From: a virus
DNA: 60,294 nt
Virus record (IMG/VR): IMGVR_UViG_3300027499_000002
Strand: one strand, 5' to 3'
Shown: piece by piece, positions 22,467 to 60,294 of the stretch
Position numbering within the stretch: the first letter of the stretch is position 1
Layout of the letters: each line of letters begins with the position of its first letter
Made by a program: the position numbers and the translations under genes
The notes under the pieces: model-generated
The model's input: the letters and a program-made list of their open reading frames with translations, nothing else
Told to the model about the DNA's origin: nothing
Database searches by the model: none

Positions 22467-23609
22467 ATGGCAGAAAACACAAAAATAGAGTGGGCTCATC
22501 ACACCTTCAACCCCTGGATCGGTTGCACGAAAGTCAGTCCAGCGTGCAAGAATTGCTATGCCGAACGAGATTTCGATCATCGGCTTGGGCAGGTTCAATG
22601 GGGGCCAAACGGAACGCGAGTCCTGACAGGGATTGAGAACTGGGCTAAGCCGGTAAGGTGGAACATGCTGGCAAAGCGTCGAGGTCAATCAATGACCTAC
22701 GGTGAGGCTGTTGCAGTCTACGGCAAGGAGCTTCCCAAGTGTGAAGGTCACCAATGGGACAATCGCACCAAGGACGAAAACAACGCATGGTTACGTGAGC
22801 ATGGAGTCGATCCGCTTCGCAGGCCAAGAGTCTTCTGCGCAAGCCTAGCCGATGTGTTCGAGGACTGGCAAGGGCCGATCTTGAACAGCAAGGGCGAGCG
22901 AGGCGTGATTGATTGCAATGGAGGCTGGTGGTTTACGAATGGTCCCGTGAGCAATTGCTACGAGCTGACAATGGATGTTGTTCGTCAGAGGTTGTTCGCT
23001 CTGATCGATGCAACGCCGAACCTCGATTGGCTGCTGCTGACGAAAAGACCGGAAAATGTTCTTGGAAAGTGCATGTGGCCTATTCACCCGAGCGGCATAT
23101 ACCAAGAGGGGATGAGTTTTGCCGAGTCGCATCGCCGAGCGAACGTTTGGCTCGGAACTTCTGTTGAAAATCAAGAATACGCCGACAAGCGGATACCGGA
23201 GCTGCTACGGTGCCGAGACCTTTCGCCGGTGCTATTCCTGAGCTGCGAACCGTTGCTTGAGCCCATCGATCTTAGTTACCCTGAATCGCTATATCCAGAC
23301 GGTCCAGAGCGTTGCTGTAGCGGCCACGAATGCGGATGCCAAGGTCTGCCGATCGATCCACCTGCTTACTTGCATCGCGCTTTCGGCGGAGTCGATTGGG
23401 TGATCGCTGGCGGTGAAAGCGGACAAGAAGCTAGGCCTTCCAACCCAAATTGGTTTCGATCAGTTCGGAATCAATGCGAATCTTCCAGCGTGCCATTCTT
23501 GTTCAAGCAGTGGGGCGAGTTCGGCGAGAACATGCAGCGCGTTGGAAAGGTTCGTGCTGGTCGGTCTCTCGACGGTGTGATTCACGATAAATTCCCGGTT
23601 CGGTCTTAA
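22467..23609 (+). CDS. phage Gp37/Gp68 family protein (DUF5131)
   Basis: The N-terminal signature TKIEWAHHTFNPWIGCTKVSPACKNCYAE supports the call. 380 aa. Confidence 0.7.
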   Translation: MAENTKIEWAHHTFNPWIGCTKVSPACKNCYAERDFDHRLGQVQWGPNGTRVLTGIENWAKPVRWNMLAKRRGQSMTYGEAVAVYGKELPKCEGHQWDNRTKDENNAWLREHGVDPLRRPRVFCASLADVFEDWQGPILNSKGERGVIDCNGGWWFTNGPVSNCYELTMDVVRQRLFALIDATPNLDWLLLTKRPENVLGKCMWPIHPSGIYQEGMSFAESHRRANVWLGTSVENQEYADKRIPELLRCRDLSPVLFLSCEPLLEPIDLSYPESLYPDGPERCCSGHECGCQGLPIDPPAYLHRAFGGVDWVIAGGESGQEARPSNPNWFRSVRNQCESSSVPFLFKQWGEFGENMQRVGKVRAGRSLDGVIHDKFPVRS

Positions 23610-28823: not shown

Positions 28824-29205
28824 CGGCTACAGGGCCAAGTTCGAGTACGATGCAATGCGTTCGCTATTCGCTTGCTGCTGGGCCTGTGGCGCGAGTCGCA
28901 AGCCGATGGAGTATTACGGGCCATGGCTGATCGAACGTGCTCATATCGCGAATAAACCCCGCAGAGAGGACAGACGGCTGGTAGTGATGCTCTGCACAAT
29001 TTGTCACAAGAGCGAGCACGGCGAACGGCTCAAGGGATTTGATCGACCGAGGCTTACAGTGGGGCAGATGCTCGCGTTGAAACTTGAATGTGACCCTGAC
29101 TGGTACGACTTGAGGTTTCTTCAAAAACATTCGGTCAGGCTGCTGTATGCCGAGCCGGTCGTCAGGTGGTACGTCGAAGAAAGGATCCGGAACCGTGGTA
29201 ATTGA
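28750..29205 (+). CDS. HNH endonuclease
   Basis: Supported by CWACG...ERAHI...LCTICHKSEHG. The start is either ATG 28750 (TGATG coupling) or ATG 28855. Confidence 0.6.
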   Translation: MRSAKGGKDRTEICLQSSFRPWELDGYRAKFEYDAMRSLFACCWACGASRKPMEYYGPWLIERAHIANKPRREDRRLVVMLCTICHKSEHGERLKGFDRPRLTVGQMLALKLECDPDWYDLRFLQKHSVRLLYAEPVVRWYVEERIRNRGN

Positions 29206-29557
29206 TCTTCCGTGGCCGCGAGGCGTGACGGCGCAAAACGAGAGCAAGTGGCAAGGCAAAATCAGGCCGATTGCCGACTTGAAGCTCATCGCCAAAATGA
29301 TCACGCTTGACCAAATATCTCGGGGCCAGTCCCCGGTCAAGGGTCCACATGTGATCCACTATCGGTTCTTTGTTCCGGACAACCTCCGGAGAGACCGAGC
29401 GAACATGGTCCAAATGTGCAAAGCCCTGGTCGATGGGGTCGTCGCTGCTGGTGCGATCGAGGGGGACCACTGGCAAATTTCCTGGATTGGGCGGGTCGAG
29501 GTCGAGATTCGCAAGGGAAATCCTGGCGTTCGGCTGGAAATCGTCAGTTGCGCGTAA
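29195..29557 (+). CDS. rusA: RusA-like Holliday junction resolvase
   Basis: FFVPDNLRRDRANMVQMCKALVDGVVAAGAIEGDHWQI matches the RusA core pattern (rrRDxDNxxKxxxDxl...DD). I prefer GTG 29195, although the track begins at 29147. Confidence 0.55.
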   Translation: MVIDLPWPRGVTAQNESKWQGKIRPIADLKLIAKMITLDQISRGQSPVKGPHVIHYRFFVPDNLRRDRANMVQMCKALVDGVVAAGAIEGDHWQISWIGRVEVEIRKGNPGVRLEIVSCA

Positions 29558-29584
29558 AAAAATTGATGAAAAAAATAGGTTAAA

Positions 29585-29630
29585 CCGCGCCCTGGGGTGC
29601 TCGAAACTGGGCCTGGGTGTATAATGGATC
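29585..29630 (+). promoter_or_regulatory. early promoter unit 3 (TGTATAAT)
   Basis: CCGCGCCC...AAACTGGGCCTGGGTGTATAATGG shares the CGCGCCC and AAACTGGGCC blocks with units 1 and 2. It drives the sigma factor gene. Confidence 0.55.
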
Positions 29631-29683
29631 GTGTGACGGGTCGCTGACCCGATTGTTTCTGAAAAGATTTGAAAGGGCAGGAA

Positions 29684-30145
29684 ATGCTTGAAGTTCTGGA
29701 TGGTTTGCGTGGCGTGATTCGGTCGAAAATCCGAGGCGTAGAGGCCAAAATCGACATTGATGATGTGATGCAGGATGCGGCGATTGCGATCCTCACAGGT
29801 TACGGGGCCGCACCTCGAACCAAGGCAGTTTGGACGGCAAAATCGGCTCGCCGGAAGTGCTGGCGGGACTCACGACGGGACCACGAACGGTTGGTCAACG
29901 GGGGAAACCCGAACCAAGAAATCAGCCACAACCTGCTTGAGGATCTGATCCGTGGTGAAGAGACCAAGCAACTCGGTCAGGCGATCAACCAGCTCGACCC
30001 GGACACGCTGACGGCGATCCGGATGCGGTTCTACGAGGACAAGGCGTTCGCCGAGATTGCCGATCACTTCGGGGTCTCGAATCCTACCGCGGCGGCGATG
30101 GTTCGGCGTGGCCTGGAAACCCTCCGAGAAGCTATCGGCGAATAA
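29684..30145 (+). CDS. ECF-type sigma-70 family sigma factor
   Basis: It has region 2-like DDVMQDAAIAIL...W...ARRKCWRDSRRD and region 4 HTH LTAIRMRFYEDKAFAEIADHFGVSNPTAAAMVRRGLETLREAI. Confidence 0.65.
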   Translation: MLEVLDGLRGVIRSKIRGVEAKIDIDDVMQDAAIAILTGYGAAPRTKAVWTAKSARRKCWRDSRRDHERLVNGGNPNQEISHNLLEDLIRGEETKQLGQAINQLDPDTLTAIRMRFYEDKAFAEIADHFGVSNPTAAAMVRRGLETLREAIGE

Positions 30146-30156
30146 GGATCTGAGCA

Positions 30157-30414
30157 ATGCGAGTCCAAAAAACGCAGTGCTCCACGTGTATCTACCGTCC
30201 AGACTCGCCCCTGGACCTAGCGAAGCTTGAGGCTGATGTGGCTGACGGATACGGTGGGTTTAAGGGGCATCGGATTTGCCACCATAGCGATGATGCTTGC
30301 TGTGCTGGGTTCTGGGCTCGACACAAGAACGAGTTCCAGTTGGGGCAGATTGCGCAGCGGTTCGGGGTGGTCGAGTTTGTTCAAGATGACACTTTGAAGG
30401 GTAAAACAAAATGA
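30157..30414 (+). CDS. Cys/His-rich small protein (anti-sigma candidate by position)
   Basis: 85 aa with CSTC...GHRICHHSDDACCAGFW. It lies immediately downstream of the sigma gene. Confidence 0.4.
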   Translation: MRVQKTQCSTCIYRPDSPLDLAKLEADVADGYGGFKGHRICHHSDDACCAGFWARHKNEFQLGQIAQRFGVVEFVQDDTLKGKTK

Positions 30415-30887
30415 CTGATAGCAGGAAGACTTTCGCGCTGGTTGGATGCTCGAAGAAAAAACGAGTATCGAAAGATTCATTCCGCGACTTTGTGCCGGCG
30501 CGTGAGCTTTACACTTCGGACCTGTTTCAGAAGCGAGTCGCGCACGTCGAGGGTCGAGGCTTGCCGTGGTTCATCCTCAGTGCGAAATCAGGGTGTATTA
30601 CGCCGATCACTCCGTTGAGGCTCTACGATATCAAGATGGGCGACAAAGCACCTATCGACGTTGCTGCTTGGCACGTTGGCGCGGCTAGTCAATTCGTGGA
30701 TCTTCTGTACCACGACTGGGACATTCGAGACCTGAAAGAGGTCGAGGTTGAATTGCACGCAGGGGCAAACTACTCGAAGCCGCTCGCAGACATTTTGGTT
30801 TTGTTGGGTATCAGGGTCATTCTTCCGGTTCGAGGAATGGGGATCGGTCAGCAACTCAAGCACTACAAGGAATCGGTTTCATCATGA
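30411..30887 (+). CDS. hypothetical protein (DUF6884-like pattern)
   Basis: It contains ALVGCSKKK...PARELYTSDLF...WFILSAKSGCITP...LYD. Confidence 0.4.
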   Translation: MTDSRKTFALVGCSKKKRVSKDSFRDFVPARELYTSDLFQKRVAHVEGRGLPWFILSAKSGCITPITPLRLYDIKMGDKAPIDVAAWHVGAASQFVDLLYHDWDIRDLKEVEVELHAGANYSKPLADILVLLGIRVILPVRGMGIGQQLKHYKESVSS

Positions 30888-31138
30888 GCCAAAATCAAGC
30901 AGGCTGGCGTCAGTGGAAGGTCACGGCCTACACTGGCAAAAATCGGAACGTGATGCTTGGGTCAAGCTACGTGCTGGCCGACACCGAACGACAGGCGATG
31001 GAGCTCGGCAGGCGTGCGTTGCGTCTGATCGGAGTGCGGGGATCTTTCCGGGTCTCAGCCTCGCAGTACTTCCCTTGGAGGGATCTGGCCTTTTCTGGTT
31101 TTGTTTTTCAGGTTGCCGGAAGTCCGGCGAAAGGGTAG
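30884..31138 (+). CDS. hypothetical protein
   Basis: 84 aa with an ATGA overlap. Confidence 0.45.
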   Translation: MSQNQAGWRQWKVTAYTGKNRNVMLGSSYVLADTERQAMELGRRALRLIGVRGSFRVSASQYFPWRDLAFSGFVFQVAGSPAKG

Positions 31139-31310
31139 AGCCATAGACCAACCGACAGACTGGATCGAAAGACAGACGGCCAAGCTGCTGGCAAGGGCAA
31201 AGCGTTCGGGGTACTTCCGAGAAGTGATTCAGGACGCAAAGCATTTTGAGTCTCAGGGGTACGTGTGGGATGTGGCCCTTGCGATAGCTTGCGGCTACTG
31301 GTGTTCATAA
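31101..31310 (+). CDS. hypothetical protein
   Basis: 69 aa. The start is uncertain because it overlaps the upstream gene by 38 nt. Confidence 0.35.
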   Translation: MFFRLPEVRRKGRAIDQPTDWIERQTAKLLARAKRSGYFREVIQDAKHFESQGYVWDVALAIACGYWCS

Positions 31311-31334
31311 ACAAACAGGAGGTCAATCAAGACT

Positions 31335-31787
31335 ATGAAAGCACTAACGATAAGCCAACCGTTTGCATCGCTGATTGCCAGCGGTGAAAAGTGGATCGAG
31401 AACCGAAGTTGGTACACTTCCTACCGTGGTCCGCTTGCGATCCATGCTGGGAAGGGACTGCAATATCTCGATCGAGAAGAGGTCAAGGGCTACCCCACTG
31501 GATCTATAATTGCAACAGCGCGTCTATCCGCTTGTGTCGTCCGAGAGGAACTGCAAAGGATGGCGTTCCATTCAACCACGAATGGCAACGAGTTGATTCC
31601 AGGTGCGAAAGTAACATGGAGGCAGGCTTTCGATCATGCTTATACCGAAGGGCCTTGGTGCTGGATACTTGAAGACTTTCAAGCGATCGAGCCGATACAG
31701 GTCAAAGGGGCTCAGGGCCTATGGGCGGTCCCATCGGAAATCCTTGAGTCAATCGCTGCAAGCCAGAAAGCACAATTCAGCCTATAA
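31335..31787 (+). CDS. ASCH domain protein
   Basis: Supported by MKALTISQPFASLIASGEKWIENRSWYTSYRGPLAIHAGK. Confidence 0.6.
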   Translation: MKALTISQPFASLIASGEKWIENRSWYTSYRGPLAIHAGKGLQYLDREEVKGYPTGSIIATARLSACVVREELQRMAFHSTTNGNELIPGAKVTWRQAFDHAYTEGPWCWILEDFQAIEPIQVKGAQGLWAVPSEILESIAASQKAQFSL

Positions 31788-31872
31788 AAAAATAGCGTTG
31801 CGTTTTTCTGCTTTGTTGCGTTGGTTTCGATCTTGGGTTACTCTGTTGGTTCCTTCAAACCTCGGAGTGAAC

Positions 31873-32466
31873 ATGGCAAAAAAGAAAACAGACGCGCAAG
31901 CTCCACCCAAAAACGAACCGACTCAGTGGCGGTCGAAGATCGTCGGGCATGGCAAGGTTGCTGCGTCGCAACTACTGGCCAACCCGTTCAACCATCGCAG
32001 GCATCCTGTGAAGCAACGAGAGCTTGTCTCGGCCTCAATTGATAGGGTTGGAATAGTTAAATCGATTCAAGTCAATAGAGTGACTGGCCGTATCTTAGAC
32101 GGTCACGAGCGCGTTATGCAAGCATTGAGCCGTGGGGATGGTACTCTGGTCGATGTAGAGTACGTCGAACTATCCGAGGAAGATGAAAAAAAAGCGCTGT
32201 TGATTTTGGATGCGTCGAGAGAGATGGCAGGGATCGACAATGATAGGCTTGACGAGTTGGTTGAGCAAAGCGCATTGCCGGACTTTTTCGATGACTATGT
32301 TAGCGGGTTAGTACTGAGTGATTCTGGTCCGCAAAAAAAGTTCGCTGTCCCGTTGACCAAGTTTCTTCGGGTCGAAGTGGAAATCCCTGATGCTCTGGAA
32401 GTTCAGCAAGGAGTTTCCAATGTGCTGAAATCAATGGGTCTTGAAGCAATGGTCGAGGTCTTTTGA
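31873..32466 (+). CDS. ParB N-terminal (Srx-like) domain protein, paralog 1
   Basis: Supported by LLANPFNHRRHPVKQRELVSASIDRVGIVKSIQVNRVTGRILDGHERV. A degenerate promoter motif lies upstream at about 31815. Confidence 0.6.
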   Translation: MAKKKTDAQAPPKNEPTQWRSKIVGHGKVAASQLLANPFNHRRHPVKQRELVSASIDRVGIVKSIQVNRVTGRILDGHERVMQALSRGDGTLVDVEYVELSEEDEKKALLILDASREMAGIDNDRLDELVEQSALPDFFDDYVSGLVLSDSGPQKKFAVPLTKFLRVEVEIPDALEVQQGVSNVLKSMGLEAMVEVF

Positions 32467-33062
32467 TGTGGATAAGCAAGATCGTCGATCACGGTAGGGT
32501 CAAGTGCACAGAGGTTAAGTTGCATCCTTTGAATTACCGAACGCACAGCGAAAAGCAACAGGAGATAGTTCGAGATTCGATTACTGAACTAGGAATTGTC
32601 CAGTCCATTATTATCAATCGGACGACAGGCCGTTTAATCGACGGCCACGCAAGGGTGGGTGAGGCTTGCAAGCGACAGGCTGAAACGGGACAAGATATTT
32701 TTTTAGACGCAGAGTACGTTGAACTGAGCGAAAAGGAAGAATTACAAGCGCTTTTGTTGCTTGATGGTTCTGGCGCTCTGGCAAGACAGGACCGCGAGTT
32801 AATTGGCATGCTGGTCGATGGAATGACCTGGGAGACGGAATCCTTGCAGAATTTTCAGAAAGAGCTTGCGGTTCATTATGCGAATGATGGGGAATGGGGT
32901 GGCAAAAGGGATGCGGACATTGACAGCATAAAGGATTGGAGCAACGACGATATCAAACGACTGGTCAAGGTGGCTATTCCTGTGGAGAGATGGTCTGAGG
33001 TTGCGGAAGCCGTTAATGGTTGGCTCGAAGCGGCCGGGTATGAATACCGGGTGATCCAATGA
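32466..33062 (+). CDS. ParB N-terminal (Srx-like) domain protein, paralog 2
   Basis: Supported by LHPLNYRTHSEKQQEIVRDSITELGIVQSIIINRTTGRLIDGHARV, with TGATG coupling to paralog 1. Confidence 0.6.
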   Translation: MWISKIVDHGRVKCTEVKLHPLNYRTHSEKQQEIVRDSITELGIVQSIIINRTTGRLIDGHARVGEACKRQAETGQDIFLDAEYVELSEKEELQALLLLDGSGALARQDRELIGMLVDGMTWETESLQNFQKELAVHYANDGEWGGKRDADIDSIKDWSNDDIKRLVKVAIPVERWSEVAEAVNGWLEAAGYEYRVIQ

Positions 33063-33919
33063 AGTTACCTGTACTGGTGTCGTATGCCTACGCAAGAAAA
33101 TCCATAGCGAAGTTCGAAGCGTTAATTGCAGACGATCGAATAGAAGTACTTTTGGATTGCGGGGCGTTCACGGCAAAAAATGCCGGAGAGGTAATCACGC
33201 TTGATGCCTATTGCGAATTCCTGGACACCTATCGTGATCGGATATTCAAATACTTGGCTCTGGACGTAGTTGGAGATCCAGTTCAGACTGAAGCGAATCT
33301 GCGAGACATGCTAGATCGCGGGTACCTTCCGTCACCAGTTCATGTTAGGGGTGATGATGAAAGGAAGATGAACGAGCTTTTTGAAATGAGCGATTTTGTG
33401 GCGTTGGCAGGACTACGAATTCCAGGTCGGGGGCAATGCGATGGATCCTATATCAAAAAGAAGATGGAATGGGCGGCAGGACGGAACGTTCACTGGCTGG
33501 GATTTGTACGCGCAGAATATTTCCAGTTGCGTCCTTACAGCTGCGATTCGGTTTCGTGGTCTACCGGGGAGCAATTCGGTAACATGCATTGCTACCTAGG
33601 AAACGGAAGATTCGTAACGAGAACTTTTTCCAGGCGTGGCGAGATTTGGTCGAATCGACGCGCTCGAGATTTGGTTTTGCAGAGCGGAGTAACCCAGGGA
33701 CAATTCAACGACCAGAGGTTCTGGACTTCCAACCGAGGTATGGAGGGCTGGAAGTACATGACGGTTTTAGTTTCTGGCGAATCTTGGATCAGATACGTTT
33801 GGGATATCTACCAACGCTACGGCGTGAAGATTTTTATGGCCTCGACATTGACCGATCCACAAGTGGCGGCGATCAATTACGGATTAGAACAAAACCCGGA
33901 GCTATTCGATGGCAGCTAG
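33059..33919 (+). CDS. dpdA: DpdA-like DNA-guanine transglycosylase (TGT-fold)
   Basis: LLDCGAFTAKN, ALDVVGDP and VHWLGF...PYSCDSVSWS resemble the phage DpdA pattern. The gene is embedded in the queD/queE/folE cluster. Confidence 0.55.
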   Translation: MKLPVLVSYAYARKSIAKFEALIADDRIEVLLDCGAFTAKNAGEVITLDAYCEFLDTYRDRIFKYLALDVVGDPVQTEANLRDMLDRGYLPSPVHVRGDDERKMNELFEMSDFVALAGLRIPGRGQCDGSYIKKKMEWAAGRNVHWLGFVRAEYFQLRPYSCDSVSWSTGEQFGNMHCYLGNGRFVTRTFSRRGEIWSNRRARDLVLQSGVTQGQFNDQRFWTSNRGMEGWKYMTVLVSGESWIRYVWDIYQRYGVKIFMASTLTDPQVAAINYGLEQNPELFDGS

Positions 33920-34259
33920 TATTTTTTGCAGGTTTACGTTTGAGGCTTTCCATCATTGGCCGAACGCTACTGAACGGTACGCCTACCTTGGAACGATCCA
34001 CCGACACGTTTTCCACGTTGAGCTGCGAAGGCCAGTCGGACACGCAAATCGCGACGTAGAGTTCATCGAGTGGAAGAACTGGGCTGTTGGAAAGGTAAAC
34101 GAACAGAAGGCTCAAGAAGTGACGCTAGGCTGGTCCTGCGAGCATTGGGGCCAATGGATGATCGAGAACCTGGACGCGACCGTGGCGATCGTTTCTGAGG
34201 ACGGGGAGAACGGCGCGATCGTGGAAAAGAATGGTGACGAATGGACAGCCGGATTTTAG
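33909..34259 (+). CDS. divergent QueD/PTPS-fold paralog
   Basis: FTFEAFHHWPNA...YLGTIHRHVFHVEL...VEFIEWK mirrors the QueD pattern F.F.AaH...LHGHxY.V.V....DF..lK, but has HRH in place of HGH. Confidence 0.4.
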   Translation: MAASIFCRFTFEAFHHWPNATERYAYLGTIHRHVFHVELRRPVGHANRDVEFIEWKNWAVGKVNEQKAQEVTLGWSCEHWGQWMIENLDATVAIVSEDGENGAIVEKNGDEWTAGF

Positions 34260-34747
34260 TTGTTTCGTACTTGACGATGGCGGTCTGTGCAAACGGACTG
34301 GTGGGATATTTCGGGCCGGTGGTCTTGCCTTTGACCGCTTTGGCGATGATCCCGTTCGAGCTGACTGTGCGTGACGTTTTGCATGAAAGATGGAATGGAT
34401 CGTTTGGCAGGCTCTCGGCTGTTGTGGTCGCAGGATCGGCCGTATCGTGGATGGTGGCTCCGCTTGCGGTCTGTGTTGCGAGTGCGTCGGCGTTCTTTTT
34501 CAGCGGGTTGTCGGACTGGCTGGTGTACCTTTCCATGGCAGGACAGCCAAAGAATCGCAAGATGATCGCAAGCAATTCGGTATCTGCGATTGTGGACTCG
34601 ATGGCTTTTCAGTTGATTGCGTTCGGTGTAATCTCTTTGGAGATTCTGGTCTCGCAGTGCGGATTCAAGATCGTCGGCGGAATGGTTTGTGTTGCGGTGT
34701 TGGCTTGGATATCATCGAGAGGAAGAAACGATGCTGACTTGTACTAG
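34241..34747 (+). CDS. YhhQ/VUT-family queuosine-precursor transporter-like membrane protein (short)
   Basis: A multi-TM protein. SNSVSAIVDSMAFQLIAFG compares with E. coli YhhQ GNVSDTLAFFFIAF, and IPFELTVRDVLHE compares with FPFIFLATDLTVR. Confidence 0.55.
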   Translation: MDSRILVVSYLTMAVCANGLVGYFGPVVLPLTALAMIPFELTVRDVLHERWNGSFGRLSAVVVAGSAVSWMVAPLAVCVASASAFFFSGLSDWLVYLSMAGQPKNRKMIASNSVSAIVDSMAFQLIAFGVISLEILVSQCGFKIVGGMVCVAVLAWISSRGRNDADLY

Positions 34748-35153
34748 ACGAATTCAGTTCTGTGCCGGACACCGGGTACACGGCCACGAAACCAAATGCA
34801 AGAATCTCCATGGCCACAACTATGTCGCTTTGTTCGAGGCGCAAGGAGACTTGGATTCGATCGGTCGAGTGATTGATTTTTCCGTCCTAAAAGAGAAGCT
34901 CGGAGGATGGATCGATCAACATTGGGATCACGGATTCATTCTGTACAGTTACGATTTTGATGCGATCAATGCGGTTTCTGCACTTCCAGGAACCAAGATA
35001 CACTTGATGCCAAGCAATCCGACGGCTGAGAACATGGCAGAATTCCTGCTCAAGTTTATCGGTCCAGAGTGCTTGGCTGGAACGGGAGTGAAGTTGATTT
35101 CAGTCACACTTTGGGAAACAGAAAATTGCTATGCAAAAGCAGTATTGGATTAA
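34731..35153 (+). CDS. queD: 6-carboxy-5,6,7,8-tetrahydropterin synthase QueD
   Basis: Supported by RIQFCAGHRVHGHETKCKNLHGHNYVALFEA...VIDFSVLK. Confidence 0.8.
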   Translation: MLTCTRRIQFCAGHRVHGHETKCKNLHGHNYVALFEAQGDLDSIGRVIDFSVLKEKLGGWIDQHWDHGFILYSYDFDAINAVSALPGTKIHLMPSNPTAENMAEFLLKFIGPECLAGTGVKLISVTLWETENCYAKAVLD

Positions 35154-35745
35154 CGAGATTTACCTGAGTATCCAAGGAGAGGGCATTCGGACCGGAGAGC
35201 CTTCGATCTTCATGCGGTTCACTGGCTGCAATATGCGCTGCGATATACATGCCAACGACAAGTCGCCTGGGGGGTTTGCTTGTGATACCGAGTTCGAAAG
35301 CGGCCGAAAGATGACCGCCGATGAAATCCTCGACGAGCTGCAAACGATCAAGGGTGATTGCGTTTGGATTGTTATGACCGGAGGCGAGCCTGGGTTGCAA
35401 GTGGACGAAGACCTTCTGCAGAAGCTAAGTGAGGATGGTTTCAAGCTAGCGGTTGAAACCAACGGCTCGGTGGCATTGCCTGCGGGGTTCCACTGGATCA
35501 CAGTTAGTCCCAAGGTGGCTGAACATGCAATCAAGCAGCGAACCGCGAACGAGGTAAAATACGTTCGCGGATACGGACAGGCTTTGCCCAAGACCGTAGT
35601 ACAGGCCGAGCATTATTTGATCTCGCCAGCGTTCAGCGGATTGGAAACAGACGCTCGGACGCTGGCATGGTGCGAACAGTTGGTTTCTGAAAGCGATACT
35701 TGGAAGCTATCGCTGCAAACCCACAAGATGAACAATTGGAGGTGA
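35131..35745 (+). CDS. queE: 7-carboxy-7-deazaguanine synthase QueE (radical SAM)
   Basis: Supported by [33 protein letters not shown] and the downstream VMTGGEP. Confidence 0.8.
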
Positions 35746-35747
35746 AA

Positions 35748-36323
35748 ATGAAGTCGATCGATCCGGCTGAAATTCCATGCGCTGAGAATGCGGTTCGAGA
35801 CCTGCTTAGATCGATCGGAGAAGATCCCGACCGAGAAGGCTTGCTGGACACTCCCAAGCGGTATGCAAAGGCGTTGCGCGAAATGACCGCAGGCTACCAA
35901 ATGGAACCGAGCAAGATCCTCGAACGGGTATTCTCCGAGGACTGTGATCAAGTGATTGTCTTGAGGGGGATTCAATTTACTTCGATGTGCGAACACCATC
36001 TGTTGCCATTCGTCGGTGTGGCCGATGTTGCCTACCTTCCAGGTGGTTCGCGTGGAGTGGTAGGACTTTCCAAGCTGGCAAGGCTGGTCGAATGCTTCGC
36101 AAGGCGACTTCAAATTCAGGAGCGAATGACAAAACAGATCGCCGAAGCTCTAGTTGAAAACCTCCAGCCGAGGGGGGTCGCAGTAATCGTAAGGGCGAAA
36201 CATTCCTGCATGAGCTGCCGAGGTGTCTTGCAGCATGATAGCGAAATGATCACCTCGAGTATGCTTGGAATGTTCCGGGACAATGCCGAGGCAAGAGCAG
36301 AACTATTGCTGTTGGTGAAATAA
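35748..36323 (+). CDS. folE: GTP cyclohydrolase I FolE
   Basis: Supported by [19 protein letters not shown]...[12 protein letters not shown]...[32 protein letters not shown]. Confidence 0.85.
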
Positions 36324-36922
36324 TGAGCCGCCGTAAAAGCGGCGCGGAACGTCGAGCGATCCGCAATAGGAACAAAAGAGCTAGGTCAGGGGCGGTCGTT
36401 GGTGAAGACTGTCCCGGTCTGCCTCGCGTTGGTGACGAGAAACCAAACACGGAACAATCCGGATCGGTGGATCAAGTGTCGCTACACCAAAGCGATACGC
36501 CCAACGAGTTGCAACAATCAGAATCTCCCTGGTGGCGTGAGTTAAGCCCGGAAAACATCGCAAAGGCAAATGCGATGGGGATGGGGGGAGCCGTGAAGTC
36601 GATGATGGACAGGCGGCTGGAACTGCGAGCGGTCTCTGAAAACTGGCCGATAAGCCGAGACGTTCGGGAGCGAATCGTTTACGAATCGATGATGGTGCTT
36701 CTCGATCCGAAAGCAGACCCGAGGCTGAAACAACGTGAGCGATGGATGCTTCACAAGATGGCAGAATCCAACACAAAGCCAAGAGACCTGCCGGTACAAA
36801 TTACAGGCAATACGACGATCACAGTCAACCAAGTCTTGGCGATGCTCGACGGTAGTTCCTCAGACGACCTAGATTTTCGGGACAGAAAGATTCTGCCGGG
36901 GTCTGTAGATGACTACGCTTGA
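36323..36922 (+). CDS. terminase small subunit candidate (by position)
   Basis: 199 aa with a basic N-terminus. It lies immediately upstream of TerL and overlaps it. Confidence 0.4.
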   Translation: MSRRKSGAERRAIRNRNKRARSGAVVGEDCPGLPRVGDEKPNTEQSGSVDQVSLHQSDTPNELQQSESPWWRELSPENIAKANAMGMGGAVKSMMDRRLELRAVSENWPISRDVRERIVYESMMVLLDPKADPRLKQRERWMLHKMAESNTKPRDLPVQITGNTTITVNQVLAMLDGSSSDDLDFRDRKILPGSVDDYA

Positions 36923-38348
36923 GCAAGCCCGGGAAGCATTCGAGAACGCTCAGGCAATGCGTTCCCCGTTGCTGATGGCCGAACGATTCTCGAAGGGCGA
37001 ATGGAAACGGGCTCGGCACTTAGCAGTTATCGACTTCGAGTTTCGCAATTTATTGAACGATCCGAATTTAGATATCCTGATTGTGAAGTGTCCGGTACGG
37101 CACGGAAAAACTGAGTACCTAGCACACTGGGCTCCGGCTTGGTTTCTGCTTCGGAATCCATACTCGAAAATCATCCTTTGCACGAACACGGCAACGCTAG
37201 CGAACAATCATTCGCGGTGGGTGCGGGACAAGGTTCATGAGCTTTCCCCGATGATGGGATTGGCCGGTGTGGACCCAATGAACTCGGCGGTGAAGAACTG
37301 GCGGCTGGAGAAGACCCACGGAAGCTGTCTTGCTGCTGGCGTCGAGGGGTCGATTCCGGGGTTCGGTGCCAACCTTTTGATCATCGACGATTACATGAAG
37401 GACGCGAAGTCGGCTTACTCGCAGCGGGTTAGGGATTCCCAGTGGGATTGGTTCGTATCGACGAGCTCGACCCGTCTGGAACCGGGGGGCAAGTTGGTTT
37501 TACTTTGTACGCCTTGGCATCCGGACGACTTGATAGGTCGGATCGAATCGAAGAAAGAAGAGCTCGACTTGCGGGTCCGATCGATCACGCTGCAAGCACT
37601 GCGCGAGGGGACCGAAAAGAAGGATCCTCTCGGTAGGGCCGAAGGCGAAGCACTGTGGCCGGAACGCTGGCCGGCAGAGGTCATGCAGCGAAGGAAGCGA
37701 CAATCAGGCCACTGGTGGGACTCGATCTACCAGGGCAACCCGAAGGGGTCTTCCATGTCGAACTGGCCGGATGCCTACTTTCAAAATATTTGGGCTCAGG
37801 ACGATGAGTTCCCGGACCCTCGGAGCTGCTACCTGTCGGCATCGTTCTTGGATCCATCAAAGGGCAAGAACACTCGGAAGGGTGACTATCAGGCGATAAC
37901 CTGGATAGGCTATCAAAACGGTTTGTTCTATGTGGATTCGGATATCGAGCGTAGGCCAGTCCCGCAGATGCTCAGGACGTTCGTTGAGTGGAATCGAGAA
38001 CGTCGAACTGCATTCGTGGGGATCGAAGCGAACGCATGGCAAGACCTCCTTGCTGACCCCTACAACGAGCTTTGCCAGGAAATGGAGTACAACGCTGACC
38101 CGCCAAACCTCGTCAACCAGACGGTCAATAAGAACGTCAGGATCGAAAGGCTTGGCAAGTGGTTTAACGATCGGCGGTTTCGGTTCCGGAATACGGCATC
38201 GAACGAGCTGCTGATCGCTCAGGCCAAAGCGTTCCCGTATGGGGATCACGATGACGGGATAGACTCCCTGGAGGCTTGCTTGGCGATGCTTTGCCGGTCG
38301 GTAGATGCCCTGCATGGAATGCACGAAGTGACCGAGACGGAAATTTAG
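36909..38348 (+). CDS. terL: terminase large subunit
   Basis: It has Walker A-like KCPVRHGKTE, Walker B NLLIIDDY and the C-terminal nuclease Asp cluster GDHDDGIDSLE. 479 aa. Confidence 0.8.
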   Translation: MTTLEQAREAFENAQAMRSPLLMAERFSKGEWKRARHLAVIDFEFRNLLNDPNLDILIVKCPVRHGKTEYLAHWAPAWFLLRNPYSKIILCTNTATLANNHSRWVRDKVHELSPMMGLAGVDPMNSAVKNWRLEKTHGSCLAAGVEGSIPGFGANLLIIDDYMKDAKSAYSQRVRDSQWDWFVSTSSTRLEPGGKLVLLCTPWHPDDLIGRIESKKEELDLRVRSITLQALREGTEKKDPLGRAEGEALWPERWPAEVMQRRKRQSGHWWDSIYQGNPKGSSMSNWPDAYFQNIWAQDDEFPDPRSCYLSASFLDPSKGKNTRKGDYQAITWIGYQNGLFYVDSDIERRPVPQMLRTFVEWNRERRTAFVGIEANAWQDLLADPYNELCQEMEYNADPPNLVNQTVNKNVRIERLGKWFNDRRFRFRNTASNELLIAQAKAFPYGDHDDGIDSLEACLAMLCRSVDALHGMHEVTETEI

Positions 38349-38364
38349 TTTTTTTCCTGAGGTT

Positions 38365-38376
38365 GGTGGCGTTAGA
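38365..38376 (+). promoter_or_regulatory. promoter-like motif GGTGGCGTTAGA
   Basis: Preceded by TTTTTTTCCTGAGGTT. ATG 38418 lies 42 nt downstream. Confidence 0.5.
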
Positions 38377-38417
38377 TTGTTGGTAGTTGTATCGAGGTCA
38401 CAAAAAAATCGAGGCGA

Positions 38418-38816
38418 ATGATGGCGTGCATACCTGGGTTAGAGCACTTGGAAAAAGAAGGATGGGAAGTGGTTGCGGTCGATTATATTAGTCAGGGTGA
38501 ATGGTATCTTGACGGCGATGCAAAGCCTCTAAAGTGGTTAAAACAAAATAAAAGTTACAGCAAGACCCTGATTGTCCGCAAGATTGTGAAGCCTGATGAG
38601 TACAGGCCGTTCAAGAACGCTGCTGAGTACCTGCCTCACTTTGATCGTCCGTTGATAACTATGGATCGACCTGGGGCGGTTCGTGTAGTCGAGTGCAACG
38701 ACAACGGCGTGTGGATCGGTCCTGGTTCGGCGATGCTGACCTATGCCCAAGTCTTAAGCGATGGATTCAGGTTCGGAGACAATGGCACCCCCTTTGGGGT
38801 CAAGGTTGAATCATGA
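38418..38816 (+). CDS. hypothetical protein
   Basis: 132 aa. It is the first gene of the accessory island between TerL and the portal. Confidence 0.5.
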   Translation: MMACIPGLEHLEKEGWEVVAVDYISQGEWYLDGDAKPLKWLKQNKSYSKTLIVRKIVKPDEYRPFKNAAEYLPHFDRPLITMDRPGAVRVVECNDNGVWIGPGSAMLTYAQVLSDGFRFGDNGTPFGVKVES

Positions 38817-39055
38817 ACACAGAAGAAACGAATAGGCTGAACGCACAGAGAGCTGAGGACGCGAAACGAATCAGCGAAGCGTACCTGGAAGCCGAACGTG
38901 CGGTTGCCAAGGTTGGAACGTTGCTTCGCACTACGTTGGCAGGCAAGTATATGTGGGCGACCCGTCACCGGACTGCGATAAGCGGAATCAAGGCGACGCT
39001 GAATATCATGCGGAAGGACGTTCCAGACTATCGGGGAAAAGAGCAGGATTCATGA
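38813..39055 (+). CDS. hypothetical protein
   Basis: 80 aa with an ATGA overlap. Confidence 0.45.
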   Translation: MNTEETNRLNAQRAEDAKRISEAYLEAERAVAKVGTLLRTTLAGKYMWATRHRTAISGIKATLNIMRKDVPDYRGKEQDS

Positions 39056-39240
39056 GCAAGCGAACTCCGATAACGTCAAAGCCCTATGCAGTGGTTTTTA
39101 AGTGGAAGGACGCAAAGCCAGGGGTCTTAGATGTGCAGGAGTATTTTGAAACGGAAGAGCAGGCAAATACTTATCTCCTTGGCCTCAATGGGAAGTTGCC
39201 AAAGGGTGTAGAGTTTGCAGGCGTTATGAAGTGGGAGTAA
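39052..39240 (+). CDS. hypothetical protein
   Basis: 62 aa with an ATGA overlap. Confidence 0.45.
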   Translation: MSKRTPITSKPYAVVFKWKDAKPGVLDVQEYFETEEQANTYLLGLNGKLPKGVEFAGVMKWE

Positions 39241-39248
39241 ATAAAATC

Positions 39249-39407
39249 ATGAGCAAAATCGACCTAAACGAACAGGAACTCGAAGCCGAGTATCGAGACT
39301 GCCAATGCGAAGCCGTCTGGTTTGAGCGTTTGCTGGTTGCTGGGGCAGTTGCAATCGGTTTGGCTGTGCTCTATTTCTGCGGGGCTCTGGGATGGATCGT
39401 AAGATAG
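39249..39407 (+). CDS. small single-TM protein (below the ORF-track cutoff)
   Basis: I translated MSKIDLNEQELEAEYRDCQCEAVWFERLLVAGAVAIGLAVLYFCGALGWIVR* by hand. 52 aa. Confidence 0.35.
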   Translation: MSKIDLNEQELEAEYRDCQCEAVWFERLLVAGAVAIGLAVLYFCGALGWIVR

Positions 39408-39643
39408 TCCGCGAGAAGCTTGCAGAGCTTGAGCAGGTCGCAGGCTGCGAGATTACGAACGCTGGCCTGGACGAGCTGGAAAAGTGGTTCGATCGAGGCT
39501 ACCACACGGCGTTGCCTGGATCGAGGGCTGACAACCTCGGCAAAGAAACCAGCCAGCAACGAGCGTTCTATCTCGGCAATTTGACGCGCCGGATCGAGCT
39601 AAGGAAGACCCTCTGCGTCGGTCGATCACTGATAAAAAAGTGA
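39392..39643 (+). CDS. hypothetical protein
   Basis: 83 aa. It overlaps the small TM ORF by 16 nt. Confidence 0.45.
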   Translation: MDRKIVREKLAELEQVAGCEITNAGLDELEKWFDRGYHTALPGSRADNLGKETSQQRAFYLGNLTRRIELRKTLCVGRSLIKK

Positions 39644-42822: not shown

Positions 42823-43277
42823 TCGAACTACGAATGGTATCAGACGACCGAGGAAACTTGCAGCTACAGATGCGGTCGCGAAGCATCACTATCAGTCGTC
42901 ACGGCAGGTATTATCAAGGCGAGTGGCTTGATTGGAAGTCCGTACCGATCGTCCACGACCCTACTCAGTTAGTCGACAGGGTTGAAATCTTCGATGCAAG
43001 ATCATCGGGGGCAAAACCGGACGTTGGCCTGACTGGAAAGCAGCTTGCTGAGCTTCTTGAGAATCTTGCAGAGACTCGCGAGTGGCATCAGGACAAGGGG
43101 ATCAATCAACTCGCAGGAGACATTCAATCGAGGTCTTTTGCCAGCGGCGTAGCGGCTGGAATCTTCGAGTGCATTTCGAAAATCCAGAACATCCTAGGCC
43201 AGCAAGCAGACGAGCAAATTGCTTATGTTGTTGACTATGAAGAACCAGATCCGGACCTACCCTACCAGGGAGATTGA
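42819..43277 (+). CDS. hypothetical protein
   Basis: 152 aa with an ATGA overlap. Confidence 0.45.
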   Translation: MIELRMVSDDRGNLQLQMRSRSITISRHGRYYQGEWLDWKSVPIVHDPTQLVDRVEIFDARSSGAKPDVGLTGKQLAELLENLAETREWHQDKGINQLAGDIQSRSFASGVAAGIFECISKIQNILGQQADEQIAYVVDYEEPDPDLPYQGD

Positions 43278-43282
43278 ATTCA

Positions 43283-44041
43283 ATGAAGTCAACTTGGTTT
43301 GGAAATAAACAACGCTACGAATTTGCCAAGCTGATCCAAGAGGCCGACTACTCGATGCACGGATGGGATCTTTACAATTCGTGGCTACAGGTTGCCAGCG
43401 GGTCGATGCGTCAGGCTTGCCATGTAATGAGAACCGGGGTGAAAGACGACCGGATCGAACAGACGGTTATCGAGCACCAGAAGCGGGTAAAGCATCCTGA
43501 AAACTTCGCTCGGGCGATGGGGGTGCTTGTCGCTGCTCTGGAAAAAGAGAGTGATGATTTTCTTGGCTCGGTACTGATGGAGTGGGGCCAGAGCGATGTG
43601 CGATTTAAGGGACAATGTTTTACTCCGATGCCTGTCTGTCGGATGATGGCGGCGTTAACCATTGGGGATCGGAAGCCGGACCCGGACGAACGGCTGATGA
43701 TATCCGAGCCAACGTGCGGGGGCGGCGCGATGGTGATTGCGACTTCGGAAGTACTCAAGGCGAACGGATTTTTCCCTTGGAACTATCATTGGCAGTGCGT
43801 AGATGTTGACTGGAGGATGTTCGCGGCGTGTTACATACAGACGACCCTCCTGGGAATTCCTGCGGAGGTAGTCCATGGGAACACGTTGAGCCAAGAGCAA
43901 TGGGACACGGCTGAGACGATTTCGGCAGTGTTATACCCAGTAAGGAAAAGGCCAGCGGTGCGAATCGATGAGCCTGTGCAGGATGAGATTGTTACCGAGT
44001 CCGTTGGGCTCGGAGAGTTCAAGCAACTGACTTTATTTTAG
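43283..44041 (+). CDS. N6-adenine methyltransferase-like SAM-binding protein lacking the catalytic (D/N)PP(Y/F) motif
   Basis: It has CFTPMPVCRMM (FTP motif), motif I ISEPTCGGGAMVI and the region VDVDWRMFAACYIQTTLLGIPAEVVHGNTLS. The protein then ends with no NPPY/DPPY-type motif. I use ATG 43283 after the RBS GGGAGA. Confidence 0.45.
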   Translation: MKSTWFGNKQRYEFAKLIQEADYSMHGWDLYNSWLQVASGSMRQACHVMRTGVKDDRIEQTVIEHQKRVKHPENFARAMGVLVAALEKESDDFLGSVLMEWGQSDVRFKGQCFTPMPVCRMMAALTIGDRKPDPDERLMISEPTCGGGAMVIATSEVLKANGFFPWNYHWQCVDVDWRMFAACYIQTTLLGIPAEVVHGNTLSQEQWDTAETISAVLYPVRKRPAVRIDEPVQDEIVTESVGLGEFKQLTLF

Positions 44042-54473: not shown

Positions 54474-54478
54474 ACTTG

Positions 54479-55024
54479 ATGATCGGATGGCTTGTTTTCA
54501 TCGTTGTTTCTTGGCTGTCTGCTGACTTCATTGCAGGACTTTTCCACTGGTGGGAAGATACATACCTGACGCAAAGCGACTCGTTTATCGGGCGTCTGAT
54601 TGGTGGTCCAAATCAGCTCCACCATGCGGACCAGTACGCTTTCCTCAAGGGCTCATACTGGGAGCGAAACTACACGACGATCGTTCCAAGCCTGACGGCC
54701 ATGCTGATCTGTTTGACTTTCGAACCACTGCGCGACGGATGGCTTACGATGCTGTTTTTATCTCAAGCAAATCAGATTCACGCACTCGCGCACAGCAAAG
54801 GGAAGAACGGCTGGCTGGTTGTTTGGATGCAGCGTCTGTACATCTTTCAAAGCCCGAAGCATAATGCTGTTCACCATCGGAACCCGTTTCATGTTCGGTA
54901 TTGCGTGATGACGCCGATCCTGAATCCGGTGCTCGATGCTGTTTCTTTTTGGCGAGTCCTGGAGTTTTTTGTGCTTGCAGTTTTTTGGATTTTACCGAGA
55001 GTAAATCATGGAACCGTTGATTGA
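54479..55024 (+). CDS. CarF/TMEM189(PEDS1)/FAD4-family membrane lipid desaturase
   Basis: His-box segments align by eye with human TMEM189: ADFIAGLFHWWEDTY vs ADFGSGLVHWGADTW, NQLHHAD vs FREHHID, ANQIHALAHS vs TNQIHKWSHT, SPKHNAVHHRNPF vs PRKHHRIHHVSPH, and FWRVLE vs FWRRLE. Confidence 0.75.
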   Translation: MIGWLVFIVVSWLSADFIAGLFHWWEDTYLTQSDSFIGRLIGGPNQLHHADQYAFLKGSYWERNYTTIVPSLTAMLICLTFEPLRDGWLTMLFLSQANQIHALAHSKGKNGWLVVWMQRLYIFQSPKHNAVHHRNPFHVRYCVMTPILNPVLDAVSFWRVLEFFVLAVFWILPRVNHGTVD

Positions 55025-60031: not shown

Positions 60032-60294
60032 ATGTCGCAAGCAACTGCAAGCCGTCTTATCGTTTCGGACTCTGTGACCTGGGGCAGCGGGATCGGGGTC
60101 GCGTTCAATGAATGCTCCCTGGTCGGGCAGCGAACAGTTGGCATCCATCAAGGCCATCGAGGCACGCGCCAGAGGGCTAGTTGTCGGGCTAGGACGCTAA
60201 CTCAGAAATCCGGTGGCAATATTTCCGGGAATTTCGGTGTCCAGGAAATCGATTTTTTCCTGCCCAGGGCGCTCGGTCACGCGGGGGCTGCTCC
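60032..60294 (+). CDS. major tail tube protein, N-terminal part (continues at 3..752 after collapsing the 127-bp repeat)
   Basis: From ATG 60032 there is no stop before the window end, and the frame is in phase with 3..752. Confidence 0.5.
   Translation, partial: MSQATASRLIVSDSVTWGSGIGVAFNECSLVGQRTVGIHQGHRGTRQRASCRARTLTQKSGGNISGNFGVQEIDFFLPRALGHAGAA
60168..60294. repeat. 127-bp terminal redundancy (copy of 1..127)
   Basis: Identical to the first 127 nt. Confidence 0.9.

Follow-up and report, generated by a model that had tools for sequence, protein, structure and literature searches.

Introduction

DNA modifications based on 7-deazaguanine shield phage genomes from restriction enzymes, and phage Iggy is reportedly protected from Cas9 in vitro. 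FolE, QueD and QueE convert GTP to 7-carboxy-7-deazaguanine (CDG). The branch that leads to 2'-deoxy-7-deazaguanine (dDG) is the least understood of the deazaguanine pathways: its key enzyme, DpdL, is predicted, and heterologous reconstitution failed. The closest described system is that of Cellulophaga phage phiST, which encodes FolE, QueD, QueE, DpdL and a DpdA without QueC, and in which all deoxyguanosine is replaced by dDG (PMC10516641). DpdL (CGPG_00067) is a QueD paralog proposed as a CDG decarboxylase, in which the CxxxHGH motif of QueD is changed to LxxxHRHxF (PMC10516641). Here, we describe an eight-gene cassette at 31873-36323 (+) of a 60,294-nucleotide (nt) stretch of viral DNA, IMG/VR record IMGVR_UViG_3300027499_000002. 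This whole stretch is referred to as the window, and nt numbers refer to it unless a related locus (L number) is named.

The reading that we favour, with moderate confidence, is that of a phage anti-restriction cassette of the DpdL (phiST/ACP17) type yielding dDG, the final base being deduced from the gene content. A QueC-less system of the DpdL type is already published (2023); the variant parts here are the DpdA subfamily, the ParB-N domain proteins and a YhhQ-like membrane protein. We agree with a preliminary description of the window, made from its sequence, that the locus is a 7-deazaguanine DNA-modification cassette.

Assignment of DpdL and absence of QueC

The gene at 33909-34259 (+) encodes a QueD/T-fold paralog of 116 amino acids (aa), a predicted CDG decarboxylase. 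It contains the motif YLGTIHRHVFHV (L27-G-T-I-H31-R32-H33-V-F35), which conforms to LxxxHRHxF. In tblastn searches the protein matched phiST CGPG_00067 (E 2e-9; 34% identity, query coverage 84%) and the DpdL of phage ACP17 (gp125) at 29% identity (E 2e-4). Residues H15, L27, H31, R32, H33, F35, R48, E51, S76-C77-E78, E97 and D98 were invariant, both in an alignment including phiST, ACP17 and Roos (A3) and across 30 database homologs (A4). The A4 family profile aligned with the whole of E. coli QueD (4ntm), with an E value of 5.9e-4. The AlphaFold2 model (pLDDT 91) gave top PDB matches that were all QueD/PTPS structures, the best being E. coli QueD (TM score 0.75, probability 1.0). When the DpdL profile was compared with the window's single QueD sequence by hhalign, the match was not significant (probability 0.9%) and the alignment register was right; the QueD T-fold of DpdL is settled by the profile search against PDB and by the fold search. 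The protein fits every sequence and structure test, and on this sequence and model evidence is assigned to the DpdL family. Its context is that of the described DpdLs: FolE, QueD, QueE and DpdA are encoded, and QueC is absent from a complete genome.

The three CDG-pathway enzymes had strong family scores and their identity is unambiguous. QueD, 6-carboxytetrahydropterin synthase (34731-35153 (+), 140 aa), matched Pfam PTPS at 8.1e-27, TIGR03367 at 7.8e-20 and phrog_2389 at 1e-37, and retains the canonical CxxxHGH motif (CKNLHGH). QueE, the radical SAM enzyme 7-carboxy-7-deazaguanine synthase (35131-35745 (+), 204 aa), matched TIGR04508 (queE_Cx14CxxC) at 2.3e-41, Radical_SAM at 1.2e-7 and phrog_2076 at 2.6e-29. 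FolE, GTP cyclohydrolase I (35748-36323 (+), 191 aa), matched Pfam GTP_cyclohydroI at 4.7e-72 and NF006825 at 6.3e-73. For the DpdA-like, DpdL-like and ParB-N proteins, nothing was assigned by Pfam, NCBIfam or PADLOC apart from an MTase_II ParB-like N-terminus for ParB-N 1, and their naming relied on PHROGs, profiles and structure prediction. In PHROGs, the 116-aa protein and the membrane protein encoded after it fell into phrog_17812 and phrog_4899, respectively, families that carry no functional annotation.

Nucleotides 1-127 were identical to nt 60168-60294, forming an exact 127-nt direct repeat at both ends. Such a terminal overlap is a signature of circular assembly (k-mer overlap), and the window therefore represents a complete genome of 60,167 bp. 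The structural genes span the junction of the circular genome. In other samples the same phage was recovered as a 60,197-bp contig, together with a relative of 60,937 bp (L209) whose DpdA is 93% identical. The phage is found in lakes (samples behind SRR5691555, ERZ27245853 and GROS21-1).

Neither SGGxDS nor a relaxed form of it occurred in any six-frame open reading frame (ORF) of at least 80 aa in the genome. QueC, QueF, ArcS/DUF5591 and glutamine amidotransferase gave no Pfam match in plus-strand ORFs of at least 110-120 aa. The same was true of the minus strand, for which the 10 ORFs (99-299 aa) chosen by a greedy gene call were scanned. A QueC hidden Markov model (HMM) was built from E. 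coli QueC, phage HD01 QueC and NP1 Gat-QueC and searched against all six-frame ORFs of at least 40 aa. The best match in the window had an E value of only 5.8. QueC was recovered at 1.2e-38 from the related contigs L010/L011 in that search, which served as a positive control. Because the terminal repeat marks the genome as complete, the absence of QueC applies to the whole genome.

All eight cassette genes lie on the plus strand, with starts and stops that abut or overlap. Protein lengths from DpdA to the large terminase (286/116/168/140/204/191/199/479 aa) were reproduced by independent gene calls on a second assembly of the same phage.

These results bear on most of the preliminary description. 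Its account of eight co-directional, mostly overlapping genes agreed with the coordinates and the independent gene calls. Its FolE, QueD, QueE, ParB-N, DpdA-like and YhhQ-like assignments held under Pfam, TIGR04508, PHROGs, profiles and AlphaFold2 modelling. It had reported neither a QueC nor an SGGxDS PP-loop, and the motif scan, Pfam and the controlled QueC HMM concurred, as did the Pfam scans with its failure to find QueF, ArcS or Gat-QueC; the cryptic QueC homolog that it had named as the thing to look for was not found in the complete genome by the six-frame HMM search. It had also recorded a divergent PTPS-fold paralog, for which the T-fold was borne out by profile and model while the DpdL identity had been missed. 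Because this paralog is assigned as DpdL, the encoded pathway would not halt at CDG, as had been proposed: the product of 33909-34259 is a predicted CDG decarboxylase. The QueC-less state thus becomes a published kind of system and not an unexplained gap. A decarboxylated deazaguanine had been listed among the options for the inserted base, and it is this option that the DpdL assignment favours.

Distribution of DpdL and QueC among related loci

IMG/VR, metagenomes and GTDB genomes were scanned with the DpdA alignment, giving approximately 110 loci. Neighbouring ORFs were labelled by iterated HMM searches seeded with the window proteins and with E. coli QueC and YhhQ. Loci were dereplicated at 90% DpdA identity and at least 1300 nt 3' of DpdA were required, which left 64. 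The usual gene order was ParB-N, DpdA, a slot holding either DpdL plus the YhhQ-like protein or QueC, then QueD, QueE and FolE. This slot contained DpdL and the YhhQ-like protein without QueC in 32 of the 64 loci and QueC only in 27. One locus had DpdL only and four had neither DpdL nor QueC. DpdL (or the YhhQ-like protein) was accompanied by QueC in 0/64. Fisher tests gave p values of 4e-14 for DpdL versus QueC and 4e-17 for the YhhQ-like protein with DpdL, neither being corrected for shared ancestry. In a rough neighbour-joining tree the DpdL type formed mostly one clade, and the QueC-type loci L021 and L026 were nested inside it.

DpdL is common in viral metagenomes, with relatives encoded on at least 566 IMG/VR stretches. 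Among the 80 best IMG/VR DpdL loci, none had QueC within 6 kb. The alternation of QueC with DpdL, together with these QueC-free DpdL loci, supports DpdL as a functional alternative to QueC.

Of the 33 dereplicated DpdL-type loci, 32 had the YhhQ-like gene next to DpdL, and none of the 27 QueC-type loci carried it. The gene was confined to the window lineage, Faecalibacterium phage Roos and one further DpdL locus (L203). Outside the window lineage, approximately 45 of the 80 top-ranking DpdL loci (L130-L206) instead had a DpdL neighbour resembling ACP17 gp124, with weak, sub-threshold matches to GT4 glycosyltransferases. Loci of the DpdA3 type had a P-loop AAA_18 protein (phiST CGPG_00066 type; L002 4963-5991) beside DpdL. 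Each lineage seems to give DpdL a constant neighbour of its own. CGPG_00066, which lies between DpdL and DpdA3 in phiST, was considered as a counterpart of the YhhQ-like protein and rejected, being a soluble P-loop/AAA_18 protein.

Between DpdA and QueD, the slot could hold a third type of protein, of 129-141 aa and with a GLKxHxH... motif (L028 2136-2522; L005, mycobacteriophage Cracklewink, 2047-2472). The proteins of L028, a metagenomic locus of this DpdA family, and of Bipper-type mycobacteriophages were 41% identical (E 9e-31), and their cassettes lacked both QueC and DpdL. No Pfam or PHROG family was matched by this protein, which may represent a further route from CDG. Its Cracklewink/Bipper form, gp4, was considered as a divergent DpdL; this was rejected, as hhalign showed no relation.

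Roos (PP479939.1; L003 and L044) is a temperate gut phage with a module of ParB, DpdL, DpdA and full-length YhhQ at the genome end, all four genes being annotated as hypothetical. FolE, QueD, QueE and QueC were all absent from the complete 54-kb Roos genome. The four genes therefore form a module able to work from a precursor that is imported or taken from the host.

The slot alternation, the ParB-N gene before DpdA in most loci and the unannotated DpdA subfamily all appear to be new.

DpdA and the ParB-N proteins

The gene at 33059-33919 (+) encodes a DpdA-type guanine transglycosylase of 286 aa (phrog_887, 7.9e-21). By tblastn the protein was 28-32% identical to the DpdAs of phages CAjan, NP1, Iggy, Rosebush and Cracklewink over the N-terminal 40-65% (aa 1-185), with E values from 1e-9 to 1e-12; for the DpdAs of the CAjan, Iggy, Rosebush and NP1 type, identity was 28-31% over the N-terminal 40-61%, with E values from 7e-4 to 4e-12. 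Database searches returned 77 homologs of 36-93% identity and 233-321 aa, mostly 285-310 aa. All 77 were without a Pfam domain and were named only 'hypothetical protein'. Residues D33 (LLDCGAF), D69 (LALDVVGDP) and D163 (YSCDS) were invariant in 25 family members and at least 95% conserved across 59 loci; H95 and H145 were also invariant in the family alignment. From their order and motif context rather than superposition, we infer that the three aspartates correspond to Asp95, Asp130 and Asp256 of Salmonella DpdA, the catalytic triad of TGT/DpdA enzymes that serves as general acid/base, in base recognition and as nucleophile.

The AlphaFold2 model of DpdA was a TIM barrel (pLDDT 88.6). Its best PDB match was the archaeosine tRNA-guanine transglycosylase (TGT) 1j2b, a weak match with E 2e-3 and probability 0.98. 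Among viral structures (BFVD), the best matches were phage queuine tRNA-ribosyltransferases/DpdAs, with E values from 1e-14 to 1e-7 and TM scores of up to 0.72-0.85. They came from phages of Arthrobacter, Microbacterium and Mycobacterium, and nt-1 DpdA2 was among them. A phmmer search against PDB sequences returned only spurious beta-lactamase matches (E approximately 0.1). Comparison of the family alignment (A1) with phiST DpdA3 (CGPG_00065) gave an hhalign probability of 0.3%, and there was no tblastn match. On this sequence and model evidence, the 33059 protein is classed as a DpdA of an unannotated subfamily, without the Zn motif and distinct from DpdA3.

Several unusual arrangements of DpdA were seen in the related loci. 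In L032 (6923-7924) it was fused to a QueD-like C-terminus (PCGEMHGHSY). Tandem full-length paralogs were present in L018 (6006-7882; L018/L009) and L025 (642-2416), and L034-L037 had three adjacent reading-frame pieces labelled as DpdA. Family members were also found on GTDB contigs L045, L047, L046 and L049, binned as Pirellula, Phycisphaeraceae, Pyrinomonadaceae and Pseudobdellovibrionaceae metagenome-assembled genomes, and in one unclassified bacterium. These bins give only a faint hint of host, because short contigs may be mis-binned phage DNA.

Two paralogous ParB-N domain proteins are encoded 5' of DpdA. ParB-N 1 (31873-32466 (+), 197 aa, DGHER motif) matched phrog_620 ('ParB-like partition protein') at 4.6e-16. 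ParB-N 2 (32463-33062 (+), 199 aa, DGHAR motif) matched phrog_9353 at 1.5e-15 and phrog_620 at 9.6e-12. With the ParB profile (A5), matches at 5e-13 to 3e-9 were obtained to the CTPase domains that form the N-terminus of Noc, Spo0J and ParB. Across relatives, only the Gly of the DGH(E/A)R-type motif was nearly invariant, some relatives having GNGT. The C-terminal halves of both proteins matched nothing in Pfam, NCBIfam or PADLOC, and no SspE-like domain was detected in them. The Dpd models of PADLOC, which presumably include one for DpdB, gave no match among the cassette proteins.

A ParB-N gene was found directly 5' of DpdA in most related loci of both the QueC type and the DpdL type, and also in Cracklewink and Roos; ParB-N 2 is the conserved copy. 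In phage phiSM a ParB-like gene likewise adjoins DpdA. Bacterial DpdB is a ParB-fold ATPase required by DpdA in Salmonella Montevideo (PMC10164549), and a DpdB-like role was proposed earlier for a mycobacteriophage ParB-like gene (PMC6392294). By this analogy, the phage ParB-N proteins probably work like DpdB, with ParB-N 2 as a candidate DpdB-like partner of DpdA; we do not class them as DpdB.

The YhhQ-like membrane protein

The gene at 34241-34747 (+) encodes a short YhhQ/COG1738 (Vut_1) protein of 168 aa with several transmembrane segments, as estimated from hydropathy; full-length members of the family have approximately 220 aa. Its score against Pfam Vut_1 was 27.0 bits, just below the cut-off of 27.2, and covered model positions 66-151 of 152. 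Vut_1 was matched by all 13 of 13 aligned family members, at best with 1.7e-10, and the hhalign comparison with E. coli YhhQ gave E 3e-5. The protein matched phrog_4899 at 6.5e-24, a PHROG shared with the full-length Roos orf79.

YhhQ-family proteins are described as transporters of preQ0 and preQ1 (Zallot 2017, as cited in PMC6884629). Among deazaguanine phages, no group was reported to correlate with the presence of phage YhhQ homologs (Hutinet 2019, PMC6884629), and YhhQ goes unmentioned in the 2023 DpdL paper (PMC10516641). No report of a coupling between a YhhQ-like protein and DpdL was found in the literature searched.

Transcription and other genes of the genome

The FolE stop overlaps by 1 nt the start of a candidate small terminase gene (TerS; 36323-36922 (+), 199 aa). 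TerS was assigned by position only and had no family match in Pfam, NCBIfam or PHROGs. The large terminase gene (TerL; 36909-38348 (+), 479 aa) follows and matched phrog_38 at 4.2e-78 and Terminase_6N at 2.1e-7. The TerS position 5' of TerL, as well as the adjacency of the cassette to both genes, was kept in L008, L018, L045 and Cracklewink. The TerL of relative L209 (13869-16280) has 803 aa and an intein (PF14890), whereas that of the window has no intein.

Both strands of 29000-39500 were scanned for sigma-70-like promoters, and none was found, compared with 7.0 ± 2.6 in shuffles. Terminator-like hairpins were at chance (11 versus 11.4). A sigma-70 region-4 protein is encoded by the phage itself (29669-30145 (+)), so phage-specific promoters may escape the consensus scan. 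The depletion of sigma-70-like promoters is in keeping with a phage that relies on a sigma factor of its own. The absence of a promoter, the overlapping frames and the conserved TerS/TerL adjacency together fit co-transcription with the packaging genes, and TerL is probably in the same transcription unit as the cassette. This matches the preliminary description, which had placed the cassette directly 5' of TerS/TerL with no promoter motif between them.

Just 5' of the cassette, three genes encode the sigma-70 region-4 protein, a DUF6884 protein (30411-30887 (+)), which also matches the PADLOC candidate defence family PDC-M57A (1.7e-14), and an ASCH/PUA-like domain protein (31335-31787 (+)). 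The ASCH gene has the same place in one assembly of the closest relative (L208), and a histone-deacetylase-family gene is found there in L209. An N6_Mtase-domain protein (PF02384, 5.5e-8) encoded at 43274-44041 (+) suggests a possible second modification, adenine methylation. The 1209-aa polyvalent protein encoded at 44677-48306 (+) combines a lambda-type portal (PF05136), ART-PolyVal (1.1e-17) and a eukaryotic-type topoisomerase I catalytic core (topoisomerase-IB-like, 1.9e-12). A lipid-desaturase-domain protein (PF10520, 1.5e-31) is encoded among the late genes at 54476-55024 (+), and a DUF5131 protein (5.1e-70) at 22467-23609 (+).

Other genes identified by Pfam were those of a tailed phage: tail tube, AAA ATPase, PD-(D/E)XK nuclease, ERF, helicase, MuF and capsid. 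A megablast search of 20 kb against known phages gave no match, and TerL identity to any isolate was 32% or less; on these grounds no cultured relative or host is known.

Discussion

The mechanism that we favour is as follows. FolE, QueD and QueE convert GTP to CDG by established chemistry, and DpdL, in place of QueC, would convert CDG to 7-deazaguanine by the predicted decarboxylation. DpdA would exchange guanines of the phage DNA for 7-deazaguanine after replication, giving dDG, and the small ParB-N protein(s) encoded beside it would probably take part, as DpdB does for bacterial DpdA. The YhhQ-like protein would most likely move or retain the 7-deazaguanine base feeding DpdL or DpdA; we propose this role with low confidence. 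The cassette would be transcribed late, with the terminase genes, during DNA packaging.

Several points weigh against this mechanism. Decarboxylation of CDG by DpdL is a prediction from sequence and models, for the founding members of the family too. When DpdL and DpdA were expressed in E. coli, no dDG was obtained (PMC10516641). Bacterial DpdA and TGT reportedly share a conserved Zn site, CxCx2Cx22H, and neither this site nor a conserved Cys cluster was present in DpdA alignment A1. The DpdA here is not DpdA3, the dDG-linked subfamily found in phiST. Only V96/T and one gap column separated DpdL-type from QueC-type DpdAs, and the DpdAs of the nested QueC-type loci resembled the DpdL type; with group-specific residues nearly absent and nested DpdAs of this kind, the sequences give no indication that base specificity was switched. 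Import of preQ0/preQ1, as by the characterised relatives of the YhhQ-like protein, would fit salvage. For this uncultured phage, dDG is a prediction from its genes.

A somewhat unlikely alternative is that DpdL and the YhhQ-like protein form a two-gene replacement of QueC. The YhhQ-like protein would be a required partner, a place taken in other lineages by the GT4-like or P-loop protein. The pair would either depend on membrane-linked uptake or retention of the deazaguanine base or produce one that is not plain 7-deazaguanine. If so, this would explain why dDG was never reconstituted from DpdL and DpdA alone.

Supply of preQ0 (or a derivative) is an unlikely source of the inserted base, whether host QueC makes it from CDG whose level the phage has boosted or the YhhQ-like protein imports it, with another role for DpdL. 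The YhhQ-like protein belongs to a family of preQ0/preQ1 transporters, and the window DpdA, which the nested QueC-type DpdAs nearly match, may accept preQ0. In Roos, where the ParB/DpdL/DpdA/YhhQ module lacks CDG-synthesis genes, the precursor must come from the host or the medium. Against this, DpdL and the YhhQ-like protein occupy the slot of QueC and never occur with it, which argues for an alternative post-CDG chemistry and not for QueC being dispensable. DpdL-type loci lack QueC in general, and the phiST gene set of this kind yields dDG, not dPreQ0. A phage could keep FolE, QueD and QueE and still rely on QueC of the host, but such an arrangement is not parsimonious. Because QueC and DpdL plus the YhhQ-like protein alternate on the same backbone, the host-QueC or salvage supply put forward in the preliminary description is judged the less likely reading.

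Insertion of CDG itself by DpdA (giving dCDG), either as the final base or to be decarboxylated later on the DNA by DpdL, is improbable. The enzymes of unambiguous identity, FolE, QueD and QueE, lead as far as CDG, and dCDG was detected in virus STSV-2; this was a trace, 0.04% of G, from a different gene set. CDG was raised for the QueC-less mycobacteriophage Bipper, which has the same ParB-DpdA-x-QueD-QueE-FolE-TerS-TerL synteny (Hutinet 2019, PMC6884629), and its insertion by DpdA3 was considered by the authors of the DpdL study (PMC10516641). However, CDG was not detected in phiST DNA, and the authors' structure model of DpdL favours the free base as substrate (PMC10516641).

That DpdL and the YhhQ-like protein make or handle an undescribed deazaguanine base other than 7-deazaguanine is more doubtful still. 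The strict coupling of the two genes (32/33 loci), the different DpdL neighbours of other lineages (GT4-like, as ACP17 gp124, or P-loop AAA_18, as CGPG_00066) and the failure of heterologous DpdL and DpdA to give dDG, which could mean that a partner was missing or that the product is another one, would all fit such a base. There is no positive sign of another chemistry, however; phiST-type phages demonstrably contain dDG, and the simplest role of a Vut_1 protein is transport.

Modification of tRNA (queuosine- or archaeosine-type) instead of phage DNA is highly improbable: the fold of the DpdA resembles TGT and the PDB structure that matches it best is of a tRNA-guanine transglycosylase, but the protein lacks a Pfam TGT match, the Zn subdomain and the RNA-binding extension, its closest structure and sequence relatives are phage DpdAs that include the validated DNA modifiers CAjan, Iggy and Rosebush, its gene adjoins ParB-N as in DpdA/DpdB systems, and no tRNA genes were found in the phage.

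The YhhQ-like protein is a concrete candidate for a missing component of the dDG branch. The locus also represents a large unannotated DpdA subfamily that usually has a small ParB-N partner, as bacterial DpdA has DpdB. The gene set is compact (<5 kb) and synthesisable.

Comparison with known systems

In the bacterial Dpd system a TGT-like transglycosylase likewise lies beside a ParB-fold protein. The DGQQR of DpdB has some resemblance to the DGH(E/A)R of the window proteins, a motif of which only the Gly is nearly invariant across relatives. Bacterial DpdB has approximately 400 aa and an SspE-like alpha-helical C-terminal domain, whereas the ParB-N proteins of the window, at 197 and 199 aa, are about half that length. 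Bacterial DpdA has the CxCx2Cx22H Zn site and DpdA-specific insertions, both of which the phage DpdA lacks, and the restriction components DpdC-K are absent here.

E. coli YhhQ, a COG1738/Vut_1 importer of preQ0 and preQ1, belongs to the same Pfam family as the YhhQ-like protein. The motif S-N-x-x-S-A-x-V-D-S-x-x-F-x-L-I-A-F of the latter corresponds to S-T-L-F-G-N-V-S-D-T-L-A-F-F-F-I-A-F in E. coli. E. coli YhhQ has 221 aa compared with 168 aa here, and the match to both the Pfam model and the E. coli protein is confined to the C-terminal part. The protein here is genetically tied to DpdL and not to the use of preQ0.

The DpdL cassettes of phiST, phi19:2 and phi13:1 (Cellulophaga) and of ACP17 (Acidovorax) have the same cluster of FolE, QueD, QueE, DpdL and DpdA and no QueC (PMC10516641). 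The phiST and ACP17 DpdLs share the LxxxHRHxF motif and the invariant His and Glu residues of the window DpdL. Differences lie in DpdA, which is DpdA3 in phiST and here falls among the 9g/CAjan/actinophage-like members of the family, and in the neighbour of DpdL, which is YhhQ-like here, a soluble P-loop protein in phiST and a GT4-like protein in the ACP17 type. Unlike phiST and ACP17, the window has ParB-N genes 5' of DpdA and a cassette fused to the packaging operon.

Bipper and Cracklewink (Bippervirus) have the same order of ParB-like gene, DpdA, one small ORF, QueD, QueE, FolE and small and large terminase. Bipper also lacks QueC (PMC6884629), and Cracklewink DpdA was among the best tblastn matches (31.6% identity). 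The small ORF, gp4, has 141 aa; it is not a DpdL, nor does it resemble YhhQ.

The QueC-type dPreQ0 cassettes of CAjan, Rosebush and Iggy have DpdA, FolE, QueD and QueE in common with the window; QueC is found only there, and DpdL and the YhhQ-like protein only here. Within the DpdA subfamily of the window, the QueC-type loci L020/L021 and L026 have an identical backbone and gene order, with ParB-N 5', and carry QueC instead of DpdL and the YhhQ-like protein. The alternation of QueC with these two genes on the same backbone amounts to a natural swap experiment.

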